Origin: Patescibacteria group bacterium
Lineage (GTDB): Bacteria > Patescibacteriota > Patescibacteriia > XYB2-FULL-38-15
Assembly (NCBI GenBank): GCA_041737355.1
Contig: JBGSRW010000009.1
Coordinates: forward strand, 5,323 to 69,322
Length of the DNA: 64,000 nucleotides
Direction: 5' to 3'
The translations under genes and the position numbers were made by a program. The notes beneath the pieces are model-generated. The model saw only the letters and a program-made list of their open reading frames with translations. It made no database searches and had not been told where the DNA came from. Every line of letters starts with the position of its first letter. Position 1 is the first letter of the stretch. Of the stretch, positions 9,430-63,603 are shown in pieces.

Positions 9430-9498
9430 AAAAATCGAAGTAAAAGGTAATTTTTTTATTATCTCGCTTAGCGGGATTTTTATTTTTAGAAATAAAAA

Positions 9499-9550
9499 AG
9501 AAGGCCCGTCCGCAAGTAGGATTTAGAGTCCTATTCGCAGGCAGGCCTTT
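9499..9550 (-). terminator. Intrinsic terminator for minus-strand island I2
   Basis: Imperfect 20+ bp hairpin (aaggcc...ggcctt) followed on the minus strand by cttttttatttc. Confidence 0.55.
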
Positions 9551-9601
9551 GGGGAAAAAGAACGGGTGGGTTACGAACCGGTGGGCCCGATTGGCGGGAA
9601 A

Positions 9602-9808
9602 CTACGATGAGAGGTCGTCGGCCGGGTCCTCGAGCTGCCCGCCCGTGGCGAGCAGCCGGACGTGGTCGGCGAAGGTGTCCAGGTCGGCCGCGCGATCGCG
9701 GTCCGGACCGGAACGCCAGACGCCGTCATCCTGGACCATGTCGGCCGGGTCGGCGCCTTCGACCAGCGCTTCGTAGCGCCGGTCCATCTCACTCAGCACG
9801 TTTCTCAC
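9602..9808 (-). CDS. G+C-rich small acidic hypothetical protein (island I2), about 68 aa from GTG
   Basis: GGAGGTG RBS 5 nt before GTG; D/E-rich product VRNVLSEMDRRYEALVEGADPADM...; the ORF track gives a longer 101-aa version from an upstream GTG. Confidence 0.4.
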   Translation of the reverse strand: MRNVLSEMDRRYEALVEGADPADMVQDDGVWRSGPDRDRAADLDTFADHVRLLATGGQLEDPADDLSS

Positions 9809-10171
9809 TTTTCCACCTCCATCCCCTGATGGTCGCACTTCCTCCTTTTGGAATTTGGCGGCCATCCGGCTGGGCAAAATATTTTTGCTCAATCGGTCGG
9901 TCGTCACTTAATAATTTTAATCCTTCTTTCGGGAAAAAAGAAGGGGTTTCAAGACTTGCGTCCATCCACCCCCCCCTGCAGTTCAGTGCGCGCCCCGCGC
10001 TGCGGTTCTCAGAATTTTTTGTTCCTCCTCTTTCTTGCTGTGAGTTGCTGACTTGTCTCATCGCCGGCCTCATCTGCCGGCGTGCGCTTGCGGGGCCTCC
10101 CGCACAAAGTGCGGTACTCCGGTCCTTGGCCGGTTCTAGGCTGTAACCGGATTCCCCAGGTTCGGTGCTTT

Positions 10172-10201
10172 AAATTTATCATATTTTCTTAATTTTGTCA
10201 A
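10172..10201 (-). promoter_or_regulatory. Minus-strand sigma70-type promoter driving island I2 (TTGACAAAA-N14-TGATAAATT)
   Basis: Reverse complement reads cTTGACAAAAttaagaaaatatgaTAAATT; the 18-nt core is near-identical to the promoter at 11565-11593. Confidence 0.55.
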
Positions 10202-35834: not shown

Positions 35835-36284
35835 ATGAAAGTCGGAGAGATAATGCAAAAGGATGTGGTTTCCGTGCCAAAAGGCACGCCTTTCCGCGAG
35901 GTAGCCAAGATTCTAATTGAGAAAAAGGTGAGTGGCGCCCCGGTTATTGATGAAACAGGGAAAATTATTGGGGTGGTTTCGGAAAAAGATCTTTTCCGGG
36001 CGGTATATCCCTCTTATGAGGATTTTTACAAGTCGCCCGAGTCGTATCTTGATTTCGAGGAATTGGAAGCCGAGGCCAAGACGGCCAACCATAAAAAGGT
36101 GGAAGATTTTATGTCCACGAGGCTGATTACCGCTGATCCTGAAACCCCGGTTTTGAAAATCGGCGCATTAATGGTAGCAACCGGTATTCACCGGGTGCCG
36201 GTAGTTCAAAATGGAAAAATAGTCGGCATGGTCGGCCGGGGGGATATTTATCGGGTAATTTTGAAGGAAAGGTTTGATCTTTAG
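35835..36284 (+). CDS. CBS-domain pair protein
   Basis: Two CBS motifs (GAPVIDETGKIIGVVSEKDL ... HRVPVVQNGKIVGMVGRGDI). Confidence 0.75.
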   Translation: MKVGEIMQKDVVSVPKGTPFREVAKILIEKKVSGAPVIDETGKIIGVVSEKDLFRAVYPSYEDFYKSPESYLDFEELEAEAKTANHKKVEDFMSTRLITADPETPVLKIGALMVATGIHRVPVVQNGKIVGMVGRGDIYRVILKERFDL

Positions 36285-36342
36285 GGAAAAATACCTTTCT
36301 TAATCTTACTGTAATTTTTTCTTGGTATAGTTATGGGTGAGA

Positions 36343-36456
36343 GGCAATCTACTGCTAGAAGTCCAGCAAAAGGCAGGACTTGCAATATAAAATTTGCGCA
36401 AAAGTAGTGGATTGTCTCTCGCCAAAAACACGACACGATGAAGTGTCGCGTTTTTT
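36343..36456 (+). ncRNA. Candidate small structured RNA with its own terminator
   Basis: 11-bp long-range stem (gagaggcaatc/gattgtctctc) enclosing hairpins, then the terminator cgacacgatgaagtgtcg plus tttttt; no ORF. Confidence 0.3.
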
Positions 36457-36467
36457 GTTAGAATATC

Positions 36468-36496
36468 TTGACAAAATATTAAAGCCATGATAAGCT
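36468..36496 (+). promoter_or_regulatory. Promoter of cassette 1 (TTGACAAAA-N14-TGaTAAGCT)
   Basis: Near-consensus -35 element and extended -10 element. Confidence 0.55.
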
Positions 36497-36517
36497 GATT
36501 TGTCGTTCGTGGTTTTG

Positions 36518-36577
36518 TTTTGGCGGTTTTATAACCTTCAAAATAAGGCCAGGAATGGTCCTGCCTATGGATGGATG
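36518..36577 (+). repeat. 60-nt conserved leader copy 1 (copy 2 at 37146-37205), ending in the start codon
   Basis: ttttggcggttttataaccttcaaaataaggccaggaatggtcctgcctatggatggATG identical in both copies; contains the hairpin gccaggaatggtcctgc that overlaps an AGGA. Confidence 0.85.
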
Positions 36578-36970
36578 CCCGGTAACCTTTGGGTTGGAAA
36601 GGGAGAGATGGAGAAGGCTACGGAGCTGGAACTTCCGAAGGAGATGACGGTCGGCGGCGTCACCTACGAGGTTGTCTCTTGCCTCAAGGAGGGCGAGGAG
36701 AGCGTCGACGGCGACGTGATGATGGAGCGGGCTTGGGAGATGAAGGCCAACCTCGGCCAGGATGACGGCGAGTTCATCCTCGCCCACCAGGACGAGATCC
36801 CGGTCGCCTTCCGCGACAAGATCGAGTTCGTCTTCCCTAACTGGCGGTCACGAAGGTTTCCCTCCGAGATCGTCATATGCGTCGAATGGGAGGGCGACCA
36901 CTGGGAGGAGAACCAAGGCTGGCTCGAAGACGACTGGTGCGACTTCGTTCGTCTCCTCCGCCGCAAGTAG
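36575..36970 (+). CDS. G+C-rich small acidic Trp-rich hypothetical protein (cassette 1), 131 aa
   Basis: Starts at the third ATG of the conserved leader; MPGNLWVGKGEMEK...EWEGDHWEENQGWLEDDWCDF; no known domain. Confidence 0.45.
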   Translation: MPGNLWVGKGEMEKATELELPKEMTVGGVTYEVVSCLKEGEESVDGDVMMERAWEMKANLGQDDGEFILAHQDEIPVAFRDKIEFVFPNWRSRRFPSEIVICVEWEGDHWEENQGWLEDDWCDFVRLLRRK

Positions 36971-37033
36971 GAACCTTGGTCACTCGGTAACTCGGCCCTC
37001 TCGGGCCGGGTCTCCGGAACCTCGGATCCTCTG

Positions 37034-37087
37034 GACCCTTGTCTCAACTACGTCTAATAAGCGTGTGTTGAGGCGGGGGTCTTTTTT
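37034..37087 (+). terminator. Intrinsic terminator of cassette 1
   Basis: gaccc...gggggtc stem followed by ttttttat. Confidence 0.6.
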
Positions 37088-37095
37088 ATACGGGG

Positions 37096-37124
37096 TTGAC
37101 AAAAATTAAGAATCATGTTAATCT
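37096..37124 (+). promoter_or_regulatory. Promoter of cassette 2 (TTGACAAAA-N14-TGtTAATCT)
   Basis: Same architecture as the 36468-36496 promoter. Confidence 0.55.
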
Positions 37125-37145
37125 ATTCGGTTGATTCCTGCCTTT

Positions 37146-37205
37146 ATTTTGGCGGTTTTATAACCTTCAAAATAAGGCCAGGAATGGTCCTGCCTATGGA
37201 TGGAT
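37146..37205 (+). repeat. 60-nt conserved leader copy 2
   Basis: Identical to 36518-36577. Confidence 0.85.
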
Positions 37206-37839
37206 GTTCGGACAAAGAAAGCTGGGAAAGATGACAAAGCCGTCGCTGGGACAGATTGCCGATCTCCACAATCAGATCGAAGCGGGTCGGGTCACTCGGG
37301 ATAATCTCCAATTTTTTCTGAGGAATCCTGAAGGGTCCGCCCTAATCTTCGGAGATTATCCGACCTTCAGTGTTACCGTCGATTACGACATCTCACTTGA
37401 GAAGATGGCAATGGCTACGGCCTTCGAAGATATCGCAGATGTCGTCGGCCTGGATCAGTTTGAGATGCGGGGGGAAGGTCGCGTCGATCGTGAACTCACC
37501 ATCTGTTCCATCTGCGAAAGCGTGACAACCAAGGTGTTGCTAGCAGAAATTGACAAGCATGGTTTCAGGCCAGCGAAAGTTGAGGATCTCCTGTCTTTTC
37601 TGGGTCAATTTCGTAGATTCCGGATGAAAACAGGAGGAACTCAGGGCGGAGCTTGGCTCGTCGCTCTCGGCTCGTACTGCTCGTGGGCGGCGGGGCATTG
37701 CATCGGATTTCCCAGTCTCCGCGAATGGAGATCCGATAAAGTAAAGCGGAGAAGCTTGTCGCTGGCGCAACCTCACTCGAAGAAGAATTTTTGGCTTCCA
37801 GAGCACTCTTTCTTGGTGGCCCGCAAGGACGCCGTATAG
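37204..37839 (+). CDS. G+C-rich hypothetical protein (cassette 2), 211 aa
   Basis: In frame with the third ATG of the conserved leader; no known domain; C-terminal third is low-complexity, so the true 3' end is uncertain. Confidence 0.4.
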   Translation: MFGQRKLGKMTKPSLGQIADLHNQIEAGRVTRDNLQFFLRNPEGSALIFGDYPTFSVTVDYDISLEKMAMATAFEDIADVVGLDQFEMRGEGRVDRELTICSICESVTTKVLLAEIDKHGFRPAKVEDLLSFLGQFRRFRMKTGGTQGGAWLVALGSYCSWAAGHCIGFPSLREWRSDKVKRRSLSLAQPHSKKNFWLPEHSFLVARKDAV

Positions 37840-37902
37840 TTCGGACTTCATCCTGACGTTTTCGGCGTAAGCCGAGAACGTCGGGCGGGGACGGACTGCT
37901 TG

Positions 37903-37947
37903 ACCCTTGAATTTTGTGCTTCGGCACGAGATTCGGGGTCTTTTTTT
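37903..37947 (+). terminator. Intrinsic terminator of cassette 2
   Basis: gaccc ttgaattttgtgcttcggcacgagattc ggggtc followed by ttttttta. Confidence 0.65.
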
Positions 37948-38026: not shown

Positions 38027-39517
38027 ATGCCTTTCTTTAAAGTAAAAAAATTGGATTTTGAAACCGGTGGACGGTGGATTATTGTTTTAAAAGAAAAAGA
38101 AGCCCGGGCCTACGGCATCAGGATGGGCGACAAATTGAAATTGAAATGGGACGGCCGGGAAACGGTTGTCACCGCCAATTTTACCCATACCAAAGTCGCG
38201 GACGGCGAGGTCGGGCTTTTCAAGGAAATCTGGCAGCATTATAAATTTAAACCCGGCGAGATGATTGATATTACGCTCTCGGAACGGCCGGCCTCCATTG
38301 AATCCATTAAGAAAAAACTTCTTGGCGGCGAACTGAATTACCGGGAAATGCACGCGGTCGTTCGCGATATTGCCGATTATGTCCTAGGCGATCTTGAAAT
38401 AACTTATTTTGTCGCCTCGGGCTTTGCCAGAAAATTTTCAAACAGTGAGCTTTATTATCTTACGAAATCAATCGCCGAAACCGGCGATATGCTGCGGCTT
38501 CCCGGCCCGGTTCTTGATAAGCATTCGGTCGGCGGCCTACCGGGTAATCGAACAACCATGCTTGTTGTTCCGATTATTGCGAGTTTAGGTTTCAAGATTC
38601 CCAAAACTTCTTCGCGGGCCATTACTTCGGCGGCCGGCACGGCCGATACAATGGAGGTCTTGGCGCCGGTAACCTTTCCCATGGCAAAAATAAAAGAGAT
38701 AGTTAAAAAAACCGGAGCCTGTCTTGCTTGGGGCGGAGGAACGCGCATCGCTCCGGCCGATGACCGAATAATTAAAGTTTCCTATCCTTTGTCGCTCGAG
38801 CCGTACACAAAAATGATAGTTTCGGTTATGGCGAAAAAAGTCGCCATGGGGGTGAAATATCTTGTCATCGATTTGCCGGTCGGACCGACCGGTAAAATTC
38901 ACCGGGTTGCCGACGCAAAAAAAATAGAAAAGATAATGAAATACCTGGCAAAGCGTTTCGGAATAAAAATAAAAGTGGATATCAATGAAGCGCTAAAACC
39001 AATCGGCCGGGGAATCGGTCCGGCGCTTGAGGCGCGCGATGTTTTGCGCGTCTTGGAACGCAAGGAGCACAGGCCGCTTGATTTGGAAGAAAAATCTTTG
39101 GAGCTGGCCGGCCAACTTTTGGACTTGGCCGGAATTTCCAAGAAGGGCGATGGCTATGATTTAGCTATGGAAGCTCTCCGGAGCGGCAAGGCTTGGAAGA
39201 AAATGCAGGAGATTATCCGGGCCCAGGGAGGAAAGGCCAATCTTGATTCCGAAGAGATCGTTTTGAGCGATAAAATTTTAAAAATCAAAGCGGAAAAAGC
39301 CGGCCAAATCGTAAGTTTCGACAATCTGGCGATCGTGGCAATCTGCCGGATTCTGGGGGCCCCCTCTTGCAAAATCGCGGGAATCTACTTAAATAAGGTG
39401 ATGGGCGACCGGGTGAGGCGCGGCGATACGGTCTTTACGATGTACGGAGAAAGCGCCGACAGGCTCAAATTAGCGGAAAAAGCTTTGGAAAAAAATAAGA
39501 TTTTAACCATAAAATAA
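38027..39517 (+). CDS. Thymidine-phosphorylase-family enzyme, archaeal-type AMP phosphorylase-like
   Basis: About 500 aa with an N-terminal extension (MPFFKVKKLDFETGGRWIIVLKEKEARAYGIRMGDKLKLKW) characteristic of AMP phosphorylase rather than the roughly 440-aa DeoA; glycosyltransferase family 3 core. Confidence 0.7.
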   Translation: MPFFKVKKLDFETGGRWIIVLKEKEARAYGIRMGDKLKLKWDGRETVVTANFTHTKVADGEVGLFKEIWQHYKFKPGEMIDITLSERPASIESIKKKLLGGELNYREMHAVVRDIADYVLGDLEITYFVASGFARKFSNSELYYLTKSIAETGDMLRLPGPVLDKHSVGGLPGNRTTMLVVPIIASLGFKIPKTSSRAITSAAGTADTMEVLAPVTFPMAKIKEIVKKTGACLAWGGGTRIAPADDRIIKVSYPLSLEPYTKMIVSVMAKKVAMGVKYLVIDLPVGPTGKIHRVADAKKIEKIMKYLAKRFGIKIKVDINEALKPIGRGIGPALEARDVLRVLERKEHRPLDLEEKSLELAGQLLDLAGISKKGDGYDLAMEALRSGKAWKKMQEIIRAQGGKANLDSEEIVLSDKILKIKAEKAGQIVSFDNLAIVAICRILGAPSCKIAGIYLNKVMGDRVRRGDTVFTMYGESADRLKLAEKALEKNKILTIK

Positions 39518-52935: not shown

Positions 52936-52964
52936 TTGACAAATTTTTTAGTTTTTGTTATAAA
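52936..52964 (+). promoter_or_regulatory. Promoter (TTGACAAA-17-TATAAA) that initiates at the tRNA-like element
   Basis: gTTGACAaattttttagtttttgttaTAAAAAc; predicted start site about 6-8 nt before 52980. Confidence 0.5.
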
Positions 52965-52979
52965 AACAACATGTAGACG

Positions 52980-53134
52980 GGGGCTGTAGCTCAAAGTCTG
53001 AAACAGCGTTTGGTAATGGCTTAGGTCATGACCAGCGCCGTAGACGAAGCAGAGCATTTGGGGGAAGGCGCGTGAGAGTAACTACTGGCGCCCGAACCAG
53101 AAGGTTGGAGGTTCAAGCCCTCCCAGCCCCGCCA
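52980..53134 (+). ncRNA. 155-nt tRNA-like element: perfect 7-bp acceptor stem, canonical T-arm and CCA, with about 80 extra structured nt where the D and anticodon arms should be
   Basis: 5' GGGGCTG pairs with 3' CAGCCCC-G-CCA; T-arm GGAGGTTCAAGCCCTCC; the interior contains hairpins (gctgt..acagc, ggtcatgacc, ctgg..ccag) but no standard cloverleaf. Confidence 0.5.
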
Positions 53135-53759
53135 GGTCTTAACAGCGAAGGGTTTTGCCCCGCTTTTGGCTAGAGCACCGCGAGGAGAAAGCGGAGTGTC
53201 GATGCCAAAAGAAAAGATGCTGGCGGGTTAAGCCGCTGGGGAGAGAGTCCGCTCCCGCTGTTAAGACCTCCTTCTCGGTTGCGGTTAAAAAGCGGAAGAC
53301 CTCCGCTCGGCCGCAACCAGATGGCTCGTGGCTAAGCCCAAGGGGGCTAAAATGGGCCGGTGGGTTTTTCTCGAGCCACCGAGAGAACCCCGGAAGCTTC
53401 CGCGAGCCAAGCTCGCGTTAGCATAAAGTTGCGATCGGTGAAAGCCTTGCACTGGCTACGGTTCTGGCTACCGTGCCGATCGCGACCTGCACTGTTCCTG
53501 GGGGCGGAGCTCGCCCCACATCCCTCCGATTGGGCCAGAACAGTGCAGTCTTCCAAGCCCGGCGGCGGTTCTTTTCGCTGAACCGTGAGATCGCCGCCGG
53601 GCTCCACTAAACGTACTTCCAAGTGCGGAAACCCCGCGCGAGGAAGTCGTGATGTGTGTGTTGGATTGGCCTCCCCCACACGCTTGCCGGACGAACGACA
53701 GTTGGTCGAAAGACCGATAAGTAGCCGAAAGGTGAATGTTGTTTCGTCCGGCATTTTTT
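53135..53759 (+). ncRNA. Candidate large ornate structured non-coding RNA, about 620 nt, co-transcribed immediately 3' of the tRNA-like element
   Basis: G+C-rich; no credible ORF in either strand; many long-range helices with perfect reverse complements (ggtcttaacagcg/cgctgttaagacc, gttgcgg/ccgcaac, gcgatcgg/ccgatcgc, ctgcactgttc/gaacagtgcag, cccggcggcg/cgccgccggg, ccggacgaa/ttcgtccgg), ending in a U-run. Confidence 0.5.
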
Positions 53760-53843
53760 GTCTCTGACCTTGACAAAATCACCTTTTAGAGTTAGTATTA
53801 GCCATAGGGTAGATTTAACTTTTGAATCTAAATAAAACAAAAT

Positions 53844-61098: not shown

Positions 61099-61179
61099 AT
61101 ATGGAGGCTTGTCTCGGAGTGAGACAGGTTTTTGTTCGAAAGCAGCTTCTCGGCCAAAAGCCGGGAAGGGAGGGAAAAA

Positions 61180-63603
61180 ATGAGGCTGTTCGTTCTTTTC
61201 ATTCTGGTACTTGGGGCGACCCAGGCATCGGAGGCCTTGGCGAGCGAGAGCTCACCTATTGGCGAAGCAGGGCAGGCCTACGAGGTCAGGCCCCGCGACC
61301 GGCTCGAGCGGGTGGCGGCGCATTTCGGCGTGACGATCGGAGAAATCATCTCCGCCAATCCGCCGCGCGCTTTCATCCGCGAATGCGTTGGCCAGCGCGA
61401 ACTTACGCTCCGTAACGGCGAGACGATCACTGTCTGCCGGCGGGTTCATTACGGACTTATCGCCGGAAAGACGCTCATCATCCCGGTTCCACGCTTGATT
61501 GTCGAATCGGAAAATGTCCGACTTGACGCGGAAAACACGGCTCTTGAGGCCGAACGCGACCAGGCCGAGAGAGAGAGCGATTTGTTGAAGCAAGAGCGCG
61601 ACGCTTTGCGCGCCGAACGCGATGAACTGAAGCGGACGGCCGAAGCAGCGCTTCGCGAGAAGGCCGAGATCCAGGGCCGCTACGACGAGCTGAAGCAAGC
61701 TTCTGCCGTGAGGCCGGAAAATAATGTGAACTCTCCGGCCGAAAGCAAGAGTTCCGCGCCTTCCGCGATGTATAATCGCGAGGCGTTCTTCTTCGTCATT
61801 CTGGCGATCATGGGATGCTCCCTGATTGTCATCGCACACAGGCATTTTACCCGTCCCGGATTGAAACTGAAGCGATCGGTCGAAGAACTCCGGCGCGAAC
61901 GGGCGAATTTTGAAATCGTGCGTTCCGCCTTGGCGGAAGAAGGCAAGGAACTTGCCGAGCGGCGGCGCCGGCTCGACGCCGAGGATCTGGAAATTCGCAC
62001 GCAGAGGTCGACGCTTGAGCGCGACCAGGAGAGTTTGCGGACTCAGCGCGATGAACTCGGCAAGTGGGAAGAGAGCTTGAAGGCAAGGGCAGCCGCCCCT
62101 GTGTCCGAGAAGCCGAAGACAGTCACTGCAATCGGCGTCCCGCCGATTTTCTCGCCCGTTCCGACTGGCGCGGAAAAAGCCAAGACCGAAGCGGGACTGC
62201 TGCAGGTCATGGTTGCCCGCGGGCGCCAACTCCTCGAAGAGGATTTCCGGACGCTTGCCGGACGCGAAGCAGCTTGCACGGCCCGTGAAAAGGCCATTGA
62301 GCGTCGGGTTGCGGCGCTTGATTCATTGCGGCAGGCCCTTGAAGACCGGGAGAAGAACCTTACCACAAAAGAACACGGGGTCGAAGAGTTGCGCAGGACC
62401 TTCAGCAGCGGGAAAGCCCGTTGCGACCTAACGGACATCGCCCAAACTGAACGGGAAGAGAATCTCGTTAAGGGTTTTGCCGATTTGACGGCTCAGAGAG
62501 ACCGTTTGGACAAGGAATTCGGCCAAAGGCAAATTGACCTTGACCGGCGTGCCACAGAGATCGACGGCAAGGTCCGGATGTACGACGAGGACATCGCTCC
62601 GGCGATCAAAAAGGCCCGGGAAGACCTCGCCGCCCGTGAGGCCGCTTTCGCCGAACGGGAGCGTGGGCTTGCGGAAACGGAAAGAAGCAACACGGCCCGT
62701 GCCGAAAAGCTTAGCGAAGACGAGCGCGCTTACGAACGCCGGATGCAGGAACTGAAGCAGACAGGCGACGACCTCGATCTGCGCGCTGAAAAGTTGGGCG
62801 AAGGCGAGCAGAAACTCAGCGAAGAACAGCTTGAGCTGAAGAACAACCGCGACGCCTTTGCCAACGAAGTCGACGCGGCTAAGGGTATTCTTACCCGGGC
62901 CAAGCGCAAGAAGGAAATCGTCGCCACGCTCGAAGAACGCGAAGCCGAAGTCGCTCGGCGCGAACGAGAATGTGAAGCGCGCGAAGGCACGCTTCAGTCC
63001 TGGTCGGAGCGGCTTAGCGAACGGGAACGAAAGGTTGTTCTTGCCGAGCTTCCGACAAGTGGGATACCCCACAGGCCGACACTGGCGCCGGCGTTTCCGC
63101 CTCTTCCGTTGCCCGGAGATATTACCCCTGGCACAAGCGCCGACGACGACAATCCTACGGTCACTTTCCAACCGCCGACGGACGAGGAAATTGATCCGAG
63201 GGCCGCGACCCACATTGAAATGAACCCCGGCCCGGCAATGGTAGTTGATTCTGTTGATATTGAGGGCGAAAGGGTAATCGGAACTTCCGAAGAACCGTCC
63301 GCCCCCGCAGCGGACTTGACGGTGCCGGACGGCTCGCTAACCTGCCGGCGCGAGGAGGACGGTCAGGAAGTTGATCTTGCCTCCGCTGAAGCACATATCG
63401 GAATCTGCCGGTCGCCGGCCGGAGCAGAGTCACCGCTCCGCGAAACCGGACCGCACATTCCGGTAGCGGCAGAGCCAATGCTGCACTCGGAAAGTTCTTT
63501 TTGGTGCAGCCTCTGCAAACGGGATATCCCTATGGATGACATGGATGCCCACCAGAAGCTGCATCAAGAGCAGGAAAACCACGGCCCGCTTGGCCAGGGA
63601 TAA
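61180..63603 (+). CDS. G+C-rich LysM-domain, membrane-spanning, long coiled-coil protein with C-terminal C2H2-type zinc-finger-like motif (island I7)
   Basis: RBS GGGAGGG; signal peptide; LysM (YEVRPRDRLERVAAHFGVTIGEIISANP); TM (FFFVILAIMGCSLIVIAH); about 400 aa of E/R/A-rich coiled coil; Pro-rich spacer; CSLCKRDIPMDDMDAHQKLH (C-x2-C-x12-H-x3-H). Confidence 0.5.
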   Translation: MRLFVLFILVLGATQASEALASESSPIGEAGQAYEVRPRDRLERVAAHFGVTIGEIISANPPRAFIRECVGQRELTLRNGETITVCRRVHYGLIAGKTLIIPVPRLIVESENVRLDAENTALEAERDQAERESDLLKQERDALRAERDELKRTAEAALREKAEIQGRYDELKQASAVRPENNVNSPAESKSSAPSAMYNREAFFFVILAIMGCSLIVIAHRHFTRPGLKLKRSVEELRRERANFEIVRSALAEEGKELAERRRRLDAEDLEIRTQRSTLERDQESLRTQRDELGKWEESLKARAAAPVSEKPKTVTAIGVPPIFSPVPTGAEKAKTEAGLLQVMVARGRQLLEEDFRTLAGREAACTAREKAIERRVAALDSLRQALEDREKNLTTKEHGVEELRRTFSSGKARCDLTDIAQTEREENLVKGFADLTAQRDRLDKEFGQRQIDLDRRATEIDGKVRMYDEDIAPAIKKAREDLAAREAAFAERERGLAETERSNTARAEKLSEDERAYERRMQELKQTGDDLDLRAEKLGEGEQKLSEEQLELKNNRDAFANEVDAAKGILTRAKRKKEIVATLEEREAEVARRERECEAREGTLQSWSERLSERERKVVLAELPTSGIPHRPTLAPAFPPLPLPGDITPGTSADDDNPTVTFQPPTDEEIDPRAATHIEMNPGPAMVVDSVDIEGERVIGTSEEPSAPAADLTVPDGSLTCRREEDGQEVDLASAEAHIGICRSPAGAESPLRETGPHIPVAAEPMLHSESSFWCSLCKRDIPMDDMDAHQKLHQEQENHGPLGQG

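Follow-up and report, generated by a model that had tools for sequence, protein, structure and literature searches.

Two tandem lectin-fold genes, probable relatives of diversity-generating retroelement targets, and the leader hairpin that they share in a Patescibacteria genome

The subject of this work is a pair of G+C-rich gene cassettes at positions 36468-37947 of a 64,000-nucleotide (nt) stretch of DNA from a Patescibacteria group bacterium (GenBank assembly GCA_041737355.1, contig JBGSRW010000009.1); henceforth we refer to the whole of this 64-kb stretch as the window. The two genes are probably tandem paralogues with a lectin fold, members of a superfamily of targets of diversity-generating retroelements (DGRs), and are preceded by a shared RNA leader. 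Taking the leader jointly with the identity of the genes, it is very likely that the leader is a family-conserved and apparently undescribed RNA hairpin of the 5′ untranslated region (5′-UTR), and not coding sequence. Variable proteins of DGRs are known in the Candidate Phyla Radiation (CPR): what appears to be undescribed is the conserved leader, together with the size and conservation of a hairpin found at the 3′ end of the same genes.

Two tandem cassettes with an identical leader

The locus consists of two head-to-tail units on the plus strand, each comprising a promoter, a leader, a G+C-rich open reading frame (ORF) and a terminator. This arrangement had been proposed in an earlier reading of the sequence alone (henceforth the sequence-only reading), and each part of it is found in the sequence. 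The features are listed below; P1 and P2 denote two pairings of the leader, and L numbers are our handles for related loci.

36468-36496, plus strand: promoter of cassette 1 (-35 TTGACA at 36468-36473, TG at 36488-36489, -10 TAAGCT at 36491-36496)
36504-36557, plus strand: leader hairpin P1 of cassette 1 (minimum free energy (MFE) fold, z = -3.7; covariance-model match of 64.4 bits)
36518-36577, plus strand: 60-nt repeat, copy 1 (end of the 5′ arm, apex and 3′ arm of P1, then P2 and ATGGATGGATG)
36547-36565, plus strand: alternative pairing P2 of cassette 1, GGCCAGGA-ATGG-TCCTGCC, its 5′ half being the base of the P1 3′ arm
36567-36577, plus strand: ATGGATGGATG, with three ATGs; probably non-coding leader
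36608-36970, plus strand: ORF1, probable coding sequence of 120 amino acids (aa); the longest mechanical ORF is 36500-36970
36969-37030, plus strand: 3′-UTR hairpin of cassette 1, long and imperfect, from the stop codon (3′-UTR fold z = -8.4)
37033-37088, plus strand: intrinsic terminator of cassette 1, a long stem plus U-run
37096-37124, plus strand: promoter of cassette 2 (-35 TTGACA at 37096-37101, 17-nt spacer, TG, -10 TAATCT at 37119-37124)
37134-37185, plus strand: leader hairpin P1 of cassette 2 (MFE fold; covariance-model match of 67.2 bits)
37147-37206, plus strand: 60-nt repeat, copy 2 (including P2 at 37176-37194 and the ATG triplet at 37196-37206)
37231-37839, plus strand: ORF2, coding sequence of 202 aa (N-terminal helical region, then a C-type-lectin/FGE-like domain; related, at a distance, to the verified targets of L007 and L110)
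37837-37898, plus strand: 3′-UTR hairpin of cassette 2, long, from the ORF2 stop codon (3′-UTR fold z = -9.5)
37902-37947, plus strand: intrinsic terminator of cassette 2, a hairpin then a U-run, 84% identical to the terminator of L003

The repeated 60-mer (TTTTGGCGG...ATGGATGGATG) occurs exactly twice in the window, at 36518-36577 and 37147-37206, with no occurrence expected in shuffles. Its first copy lies where the sequence-only reading had placed it; the second had been put at 37146-37205, one base off. Similarity between the copies reaches 77 nt at 92% identity, the flanks of the identical 60 nt are only 72-76% identical, and the promoter-like stretches are 72% identical. G+C content is 0.60-0.62 in ORF1 and ∼0.53 in ORF2, compared with 0.455 for the window as a whole. 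No direct repeats were found within the window at the edges of the cassettes.

Both promoters combine a perfect TTGACA, a 17-nt spacer and a TG one base before the -10 element, which reads TAAGCT or TAATCT. A generic promoter scan returned neither of them because the -10 element matches at just three of six positions. The layout TTGACAAA...TGnTAnnnT recurs at an equal distance upstream of the leader in L007, L008, L076, L110, L171, L178, L179 and L180. At the other end of each cassette the proposed terminators are also borne out, both being hairpins followed by a U-run.

The leader is a conserved RNA hairpin

P1 is predicted to start a few nucleotides past the inferred transcript start. In its dominant fold the 5′ arm pairs with TCAAAATAAGGCCAGGAA, and the apex carries a mini-hairpin, GGTT-TTAT-AACC. 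The 5′ arms of the two window copies differ at four positions with pairing kept: Watson-Crick pairs become G-U at three positions and the single mismatch is moved, so that stem quality is comparable.

Scanned with a covariance model of the leader, the 64 kb yield only these two copies, at 67 and 64 bits, with 12 bits for the match that ranks next. Beyond the window the leader is present in at least 15 other loci from other genomes and metagenomes. The sequence-only reading had called for such a search, and had named a purely local duplication as the outcome that would tell against it; because the leader is conserved well beyond the locus, it is not merely a local duplication. Among loci reached through their proteins, P1 precedes genes of the two protein families described below: family A in L001, L002, L003, L005 and L006, and family B in L007 and L008 (the latter has a variant 3′ arm and was added by hand). 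Pattern scans of genomes added L076, L110 and L169; the pattern used there was loose and returned mostly chance matches, with at least three real leaders among the matches listed. A narrower pattern applied to metagenomes gave ten matches, six of them real (L171, L173, L176, L178, L179 and L180), and two scans of viral contigs gave chance matches only. Complementarity of the arms is 15-18 of 18 in the 14 loci with the 3′-arm pattern and in both window copies; chance matches reach at most 14 in viral contigs and at most 15 in the other scans. In the protein-derived loci, which carry no complementarity bias, it is 16-18 of 18. Among the loci found, every readable cargo ORF behind the leader belongs to the lectin-fold superfamily.

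Covariation, a further check that the sequence-only reading had asked for, was assessed on an alignment of 16 leaders, a small sample, with insert-bearing apices trimmed. Paired cells make up 93.8% of P1, compared with 83.9±1.2 in shuffles (0 of 500 reach the observed value), a percentage that is inflated by the acceptance of pattern-found leaders partly on arm complementarity. Eight pairs are changed on both sides, with a covariation score of 0.337 versus 0.155 (0 of 500 shuffles), and slid registers are at most 62% paired. The apical mini-helix covaries strongly: it appears as GGTT/AACC, CTGT/ACAG and GGC/GCC. Three positions of P1 are G-U in 7-14 of the 16 sequences, and scores of the covariance model are higher for the sense than for the antisense strand in every locus; the many G-U pairs and the sense-strand scores together argue for RNA rather than a DNA cruciform. 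The model detects L002, which lay outside the training set, at 43.9 bits, and has no match in L004 or L009-L011.

Placed between promoter and start codon, and with compensatory changes in its sense-strand structure, the leader has the properties of a structured cis-acting 5′-UTR element. A cis-regulatory RNA shared by the two genes was among the possibilities raised by the sequence-only reading, and a conserved non-coding module ahead of different cargoes is indeed what is found. Against Rfam 15 the leader copies of the window have no match at E≤10, and seven loci that carry the leader yield none that reaches the gathering threshold; when the whole window, the cassette region and seven related loci were searched, tRNAs were all that Rfam returned.

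The apex of the leader also carries different palindromic inserts of 40-120 nt, resembling miniature inverted-repeat transposable elements, in 8 of the 16 loci: L001 (4775-4890), L003 (1858-1965), L006 (∼170-240), L007 (2645-2670), L008 (∼225-305), L169, L173 and L176. The same repeat types occur elsewhere in these contigs. The apex is either a preferred insertion site or simply tolerant of inserts.

Both genes belong to one lectin-fold superfamily

ORF1 is a C-type-lectin-like domain of family A without the family's N-terminal helical region; its last ∼45 codons are the counterpart of the hypervariable region of family A, which resembles the variable region (VR) of a DGR target. Eight homologues were found by word index, and a profile search returned 1128 clusters, 118 of them at E≤1e-30, with some matches carrying 2-4 tandem domains. 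The domain model of the family is of high confidence, and ORF1 keeps the conserved family core.

ORF2 appeared to be an orphan, with no close homologue in the first search. Fused relatives in family A bear a second, ORF2-like domain, and a search with that domain led to a Patescibacteria family, family B. ORF2 matches the family-B proteins P0174 (from L007; E=1e-12 over 165 aa) and P0167 (E=4e-13), as well as the gene behind the L110 leader (E=2e-11). The family-B profile scores weakly against ORF2, and the relationship is plain only in pairwise comparison with the closest members. The structure model of ORF2 (predicted local distance difference test score 73) matches FGE/C-type-lectin folds and two structurally solved DGR variable proteins, TvpA of Treponema denticola (5.2) and Mtd of Bordetella phage BPP-1 (4.6).

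No sequence similarity is detectable between ORF1 and ORF2 (BLASTP E=5.6; the ORF1-family profile is also negative against ORF2). Their kinship rests on fold and family context: the two families have a common fold class, shared N-terminal features, and fused or chimeric members. The view that the two proteins are unrelated thus holds for pairwise similarity and fails at the level of fold and family, both being C-type-lectin-fold proteins of one DGR-target superfamily. Structure prediction, which the sequence-only reading had set as a check on whether the ORFs are coding, gives C-type-lectin-like domains. Both ORFs are members of one large Patescibacteria superfamily for which there is no Pfam model.

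Neither ORF has a significant match in Pfam, PHROGs, NCBIfam, PADLOC or the sequences of the PDB. The homologues P0005 and P0174 likewise have none in Pfam, NCBIfam or PADLOC, and a PHROG search of P0005 was also negative. The suggestion of immunity, anti-defence or DNA-mimic cargo finds no support in PADLOC, Pfam or NCBIfam. The acidic, Trp-rich makeup of ORF1, which had been likened to immunity or DNA-mimic proteins in composition only, is explained by the conserved Trp scaffold of the family and the Asp/Glu-rich positions of its variable region.

Some of the larger relatives have composite architectures. Among P0011, P0012, P0013, P0015, P0040 and P0083, some consist of 2-4 tandem lectin-fold domains, each ending in ...LRRK, and others are family A fused to a second domain type. 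P0168 (L009) is a chimera that carries the family-A motif LPTEMTVGG on a family-B body.

Relatives are verified DGR targets

The link to DGRs comes from two relatives with intact retroelements. In L007 (GCA_038064745.1), downstream of the gene of the family-B protein P0174, 131 nt of that gene's 3′ end are repeated at 85% identity: 19 of the 20 mismatches between VR and template repeat (TR) fall at adenines of the downstream copy, the TR. The order is target, TR, Avd (on the opposite strand) and reverse transcriptase (RT). In L110 (Parcubacteria Gr01-1014_13) a leader-bearing gene has a 137-nt repeat with all 13 mismatches at template adenines; an RT motif is present, and the order is target, TR, RT. 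A third locus, L003, has the remnant of a DGR-type RT (GNLTSQ..AN...YADD) just downstream of its family-A gene.

Just upstream of the TR, L007 (3600-3715) and L110 (1510-1613) share a conserved non-coding stretch (GATACTYGGTAC...ATATTAGGGARATYAAGT...CCCGGAGAG). No Rfam family matches this stretch, and the window does not contain it; it probably belongs to the DGR RNA.

The codon usage of family A points in the same direction. In its last 48 codons about half of the columns hold at least three residues; the variable columns are mostly NNC codons (the third base is C in 66%), and the invariant columns are TGG, CTC and CGN, almost free of adenine. This pattern would fit adenine mutagenesis of AAC codons, and is not proof on its own. 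ORF1 is tied to the verified targets only indirectly: its family has an N-terminal region and UTR modules in common with theirs, and there is a weak profile-profile match (E=7e-4, probability 26%).

In sum, the window genes have a C-type-lectin fold carrying a VR-like region and, through ORF2, homology to verified targets; a cognate TR and a nearby RT and Avd are present in relatives and not within the window. We conclude that both genes of the window are homologous to DGR targets, and at present probably orphan or remote, possibly decaying, targets, because there is no TR or RT within 64 kb. No further members of the families were found in the window.

Translation starts downstream of the leader

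The sequence-only reading had the leader include the start codon. Both ORFs are indeed mechanically in frame with the third ATG of ATGGATGGATG, giving the 131 and 211 aa that it reported, and the identity of the repeat stops exactly at the G of that ATG. Of the three ATGs of copy 1 (36567, 36571 and 36575) no two share a frame, and none has a Shine-Dalgarno sequence. Homologues of ORF2 start with MSKPTFDQ or MNPTFEQ, which align to Met10 of ORF2 (MTKPSLGQ); because the N-termini of the homologues align there, ORF2 starts at the ATG at 37231, as it also does in the NCBI annotation (P0010). The nucleotide sequence of ORF1 is homologous to family A from 36613 onward, five bases past the ATG at 36608, which is preceded by GGAAAGGGAGAG, and short family members that start at the equivalent point exist (P0006 and others). 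ORF1 therefore probably starts at 36608.

In all other loci a further 50-110 nt of UTR, along with a strong Shine-Dalgarno sequence (AGGAG), lie between the leader hairpin and the start codon. The NCBI model P0001 reads ORF1 through the leader, and is probably too long because UTR and a strong AGGAG separate hairpin and start elsewhere. Given the starts of the homologues, the missing Shine-Dalgarno sequence and this spacing, the leader ATGs are probably not start codons, contrary to the sequence-only reading. A deliberate start in three frames from the three ATGs was also considered and rejected, on the homology-supported starts and the missing Shine-Dalgarno sequence.

An alternative pairing at the base of the leader

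A small hairpin formed by GGCCAGGA and TCCTGCC, noted previously, does exist (36547-36565) and corresponds to P2. The base of P1 and P2 are mutually exclusive: the lower 3′ arm (GGCYRGGAA; segment B) can pair with either the lower 5′ arm (segment A), giving the base of P1, or the downstream segment C, giving P2. In most other loci P2 is GCUGG-GAAA-CCAGC. Segment B reads CCAGGAA in the window and CTAGGAA in L007 versus CTGGGAA elsewhere, and its partners A and C are changed to match. In L007 segment C repeats ∼14 nt of the 5′ arm; when the window leaders and L007 were aligned with MAFFT, the result was misaligned (5′ arm against the segment following P2) and was used for that likeness alone. 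Seven leaders were folded with the lower 5′ arm blocked: six of them, window copy 2 among them, then adopt P2, and window copy 1 adopts another pairing that is weaker. For L180 the MFE structure is already the P2 state. The window copies are of the L007 type (AGGAATGG), and other family-A genes have GCTGG-GAAA-CCRGC plus two further hairpins.

The cassettes are flanked by a CBS-domain gene (35835-36284) on one side and a thymidine-phosphorylase-like gene (38027-39517) on the other. The interval from the CBS gene to cassette 1 holds a long, near-perfect 21-bp hairpin with an intrinsic terminator (36336-36455, plus strand; MFE -62.9, z = -10.3). It is unique in the window, and its inner loop (36362-36379) is complementary at 15 of 18 positions to 36558-36575 and 37187-37204 in the two leaders. 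The idea that it is a dedicated antisense regulator of the leader is unsupported, as the hairpin has no counterpart in other loci.

3′ ends and mosaic structure

Both 3′-UTRs consist of a ∼60-nt hairpin that begins at the stop codon, followed by the terminator; CTYGG repeats form the two arms of the hairpin. A hairpin at the stop codon is a feature of 11 loci, the verified targets L007 and L110 among them. At the end of a VR such an inverted repeat would follow a site for initiation of mutagenic homing, which is definable only with a TR. Characterized DGR target-site hairpins are likewise inverted repeats immediately 3′ of the variable region, with 7-10-bp GC-rich stems and GRNA tetraloops (Guo et al. 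2011, PMC3240598). Those described here differ in being ∼60 nt long and imperfect, with UCUC or GUAA loops, and a role in retrohoming is suggested by analogy. By the same analogy the 3′ hairpin may be a DGR target-site element, and the analogy likewise speaks for a role of the 5′ leader in expression and not in retrohoming.

At the same junction, in L003 (2524-2553) and L006 (804-822), both of them family-A loci, CGCAAGT is followed by a short extra hairpin that contains the stop codon, beyond which CAAGT occurs again. The arrangement looks like that of a small insertion that duplicated its target site, at the boundary between VR and 3′-UTR.

Modules of these genes have different relatives. 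The 3′-UTR of cassette 2 (37822-37947) is 81% identical to that of L173, and the ORFs differ; the ORF and 3′-UTR of cassette 1 (36632-37087) are ∼72% identical to L006; and the leader is 86-88% identical to that of L179 over 49 nt. L001 (3901-7031) and L179 (reverse strand) are orthologous gyrB-flanked loci, both with the leader: their flanks are 79-83% identical and their terminators 97% identical over 62 nt, and the cargo is not alignable by blastn. A fixed module ahead of different cargoes, as the sequence-only reading had pictured it, is found, and UTR modules also occur recombined with different cargoes, as in cassette 2 and L173 and in L001 and L179. As a separate observation, the frame at the gyrB-flanked locus is fixed, and the cargo inside it was either exchanged or diverged very fast.

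From this mosaic we infer that cassette 1 took its leader from its neighbor by recombination or gene conversion, losing the N-terminal region. Recent transfer from one neighbor to the other would explain why even the freely varying apex is identical.

Other features of the window

Four further G+C-rich regions of the window are of separate interest. At 52936-53760 (plus strand) there are, in this order, a promoter (TTGACAAAT), a tRNA-like element of 152 nt (Rfam tRNA, 38 bits; ARAGORN reports none) and, directly behind that element, a 621-nt G+C-rich stretch (53132-53752; MFE -313.6 kcal/mol, z = -10.3) with a terminator at its end. For this stretch, a candidate large structured RNA, Rfam gives nothing at E≤1. 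On the minus strand, at ∼9480-10200, a G+C-rich island (up to 67%) lies behind a promoter nearly identical to those of the cassettes (TTGACAAAATTAAGAAAATATGATAAAT). It comprises a ∼350-nt leader (fold z only -2.0), a G+C-rich ORF of ∼70 codons and a terminator; nothing in Rfam matches it, and it is not similar to the cassettes. Two G+C-rich ORFs on the plus strand, 1022-1711 (229 aa) and 61132-63603 (823 aa), have no significant Pfam match, and do not belong to families A or B as judged by hmmsearch of the six-frame translation.

Discussion

The explanation that we favor is of two separately transcribed tandem paralogues, each with its own promoter of the strong -35, extended -10 type, a 5′-UTR able to form P1 or P2, a 3′ hairpin and a terminator. 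The identity at 60 of 60 positions would most likely reflect a recent copying event or gene conversion between neighbors, on top of functional constraint; cassette 1 would be a family-A gene whose 5′ part was replaced by the leader type of its neighbor, with loss of the N-terminal region and the distal UTR. The leader would exert post-transcriptional control at the level of RNA, and may provide a common regulatory handle for all paralogues of the variable protein. We lean, by a little, towards such a cis-regulatory role of the RNA. Lying near the 5′ end of the mRNA, P1 might set stability or processing, either by protecting the 5′ end or as an RNase III-type site, a mechanism that we rank first among those considered, put forward tentatively and hold to be possible rather than probable. 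Competition between the base of P1 and P2 could act as a switch. That the leader represents a new class of cis-regulatory RNA for DGR-target genes (two-state, read by a shared trans-acting factor that would switch or stabilize all of a cell's variable-protein paralogues in concert, and forming with the conserved 3′ hairpin a portable cassette for expression and targeting into which different lectin-fold cargoes recombine) seems to us rather improbable.

Hairpins at the 5′ terminus stabilize or process bacterial mRNAs, as in the ompA 5′-UTR and in the pnp and rnc leaders cleaved by RNase III. Like these, P1 is a long stable stem near the predicted 5′ end of the mRNA, upstream of the ribosome-binding site, and its stem is lengthened by apex inserts, not lost. 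The resemblance is one of analogy: there is no sequence relationship, and P1 differs in having a conserved alternative pairing (P2) and in being confined, among the loci found, to a single gene superfamily.

The proteins fit what is known of CPR DGRs, whose target proteins are numerous, for the most part uncharacterized and, according to surveys, without recognizable domains (PMC5758913, PMC8144416). Like the variable proteins described there (Wu et al. 2018, PMC5758913; clade 2 of Roux et al. 2021, PMC8144416), those encoded in the window are small, have no Pfam or transmembrane domain, and carry a C-terminal C-type-lectin fold with a hypervariable end; their relatives in L007 and L110 show the adenine-specific mismatches between VR and TR. 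The window genes differ in having no TR, RT or Avd within 64 kb, and ORF1 differs further in being truncated at the N-terminus and in the drift of its VR-like codons.

Several of our observations weigh against the favored explanation. Within the window we found no template repeat for either gene (permissive blastn of both 3′ ends), no RT (six-frame motif scan) and no Avd, and the TRs of L007 and L110 have no match either in the window or in the other loci. No family-A member was seen beside an intact TR and RT, so that the link between this family and DGRs consists of homology in the N-terminal region and the UTRs, the fold, the codon pattern and one RT remnant. In the variable columns of the last 48 codons of ORF1 ∼14 codons end in A, G or T (GAG, GAA, CAA, ATA and others); these could not be produced by adenine mutagenesis of NNC templates, and the gene may be drifting. 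The C-terminal third of ORF2 is divergent and of low confidence in the structure model; this gene, too, may be decaying. Both genes have a weak Shine-Dalgarno sequence and are without the distal UTR hairpins of the family. To these must be added the inflation of the paired percentage of P1. As for novelty, a conserved leader of target genes, like the 3′-UTR modules, is not mentioned in the DGR surveys and reviews covered by a limited literature check.

Some of the evidence could instead be read at the level of DNA, with P1 acting as a cruciform or recombination site at the 5′ edge of an exchangeable cassette, or as a landing site for palindromic repeats. Leader-bearing genes do occur in unrelated housekeeping contexts, their 5′ and 3′ modules accompany different cargoes (the gyrB-flanked locus has a different cargo between the same flanks and terminator), half of the 16 leaders have a palindromic insert at the apex, and chimeric proteins such as P0168 exist. 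The stem, however, relies heavily on G-U pairs that would be A-C mismatches on the other strand, scores higher in sense than in antisense in every locus, and always follows a promoter at a constant short spacing and precedes a Shine-Dalgarno sequence; there is no associated recombinase, and the cassette edges in the window have no direct repeats. We regard action as DNA as quite unlikely. Nor do we favor the view that the cassettes are two decaying, pseudogene-like relics of a recent local duplication or gene conversion, the leader being without present function here, which is rather unlikely in our judgment. It accommodates the identity of all 60 nt, including the otherwise variable apex, between flanks of 72-76%, as well as the loss of the distal UTR and strong Shine-Dalgarno sequence from both genes and of the N-terminal region from ORF1. 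It also accommodates an ORF2 that has no close homologue and whose C-terminal third is modeled with low confidence, an ORF1 whose VR-like region has drifted from NNC, and the lack of DGR machinery nearby. Against it stand intact ORFs (ORF1 keeps the family core), intact promoters, 3′ hairpins and terminators, a leader family clearly conserved elsewhere, and four arm differences that keep stem quality, which suggests selection on the stem.

Among RNA-level alternatives, the leader could be a switch responsive to a ligand or factor (a riboswitch, an attenuator, or a site for a protein or small RNA) in which the base of P1 (A:B) alternates with P2 (B:C) and so governs how the variable-protein mRNA is translated or read through. 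Segment B is complementary to both A and C, with matching changes in the window and in L007; P2 forms in six of seven leaders once the lower 5′ arm is blocked; segment C of L007 repeats ∼14 nt of the 5′ arm; in most family members the next hairpin pairs a CCUC-like with a GGAG-like strand; and the adjacent hairpin RNA at 36336-36455 has 9 contiguous bases (15 of 18 overall) complementary to segment C. Yet full P1 is favored by ∼7-10 kcal/mol in six of the seven leaders and is transcribed first, which counts against any two-state scheme, including our own suggestion of one. Further, no conserved internal loop or junction resembles a ligand pocket, the apex tolerates large inserts, the neighboring hairpin RNA is absent upstream of leaders elsewhere (its 9-nt match is only marginally unlikely by chance), and the window copies are without the downstream hairpins and strong Shine-Dalgarno sequence on which a switch would act. 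A switch of this kind is in our view unlikely. The stability of P1 bears equally on the proposal from which this work began, that the leader supplies the start codon as its third ATG and that a hairpin over an AGGA gates translation of swappable immunity, anti-defence or DNA-mimic cargo: P2, the hairpin in question, competes with a far more stable P1, so that gating of this kind is not borne out. In frame with that ATG are both ORFs, the identity ends at its G, and NCBI model P0001 reads through the leader. Homologues nonetheless fix the ORF2 start at 37231, the ATG triplet offers three frames and no Shine-Dalgarno sequence, 50-110 nt of UTR separate hairpin and start elsewhere, and the cargo is of the C-type-lectin DGR-target kind, with no defence-system matches. 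The proposal as a whole is highly improbable.

Under the explanation that we favor, of paralogous lectin-fold genes with a shared RNA leader, the cassettes belong to a superfamily without a Pfam model (more than 1100 clusters at 50% identity) that includes verified DGR targets and many copies with no retroelement nearby. Should the leader be only an mRNA-stabilizing stem, the gain would be a modest improvement in annotation. The 3′ hairpins occupy the position of DGR target recognition and are several times larger than those characterized. Leader and 3′ hairpin together could tag orphan or remote DGR targets that RT-centered methods miss, and the leader would be the first hint of how expression of the hypervariable proteins of CPR bacteria is controlled.

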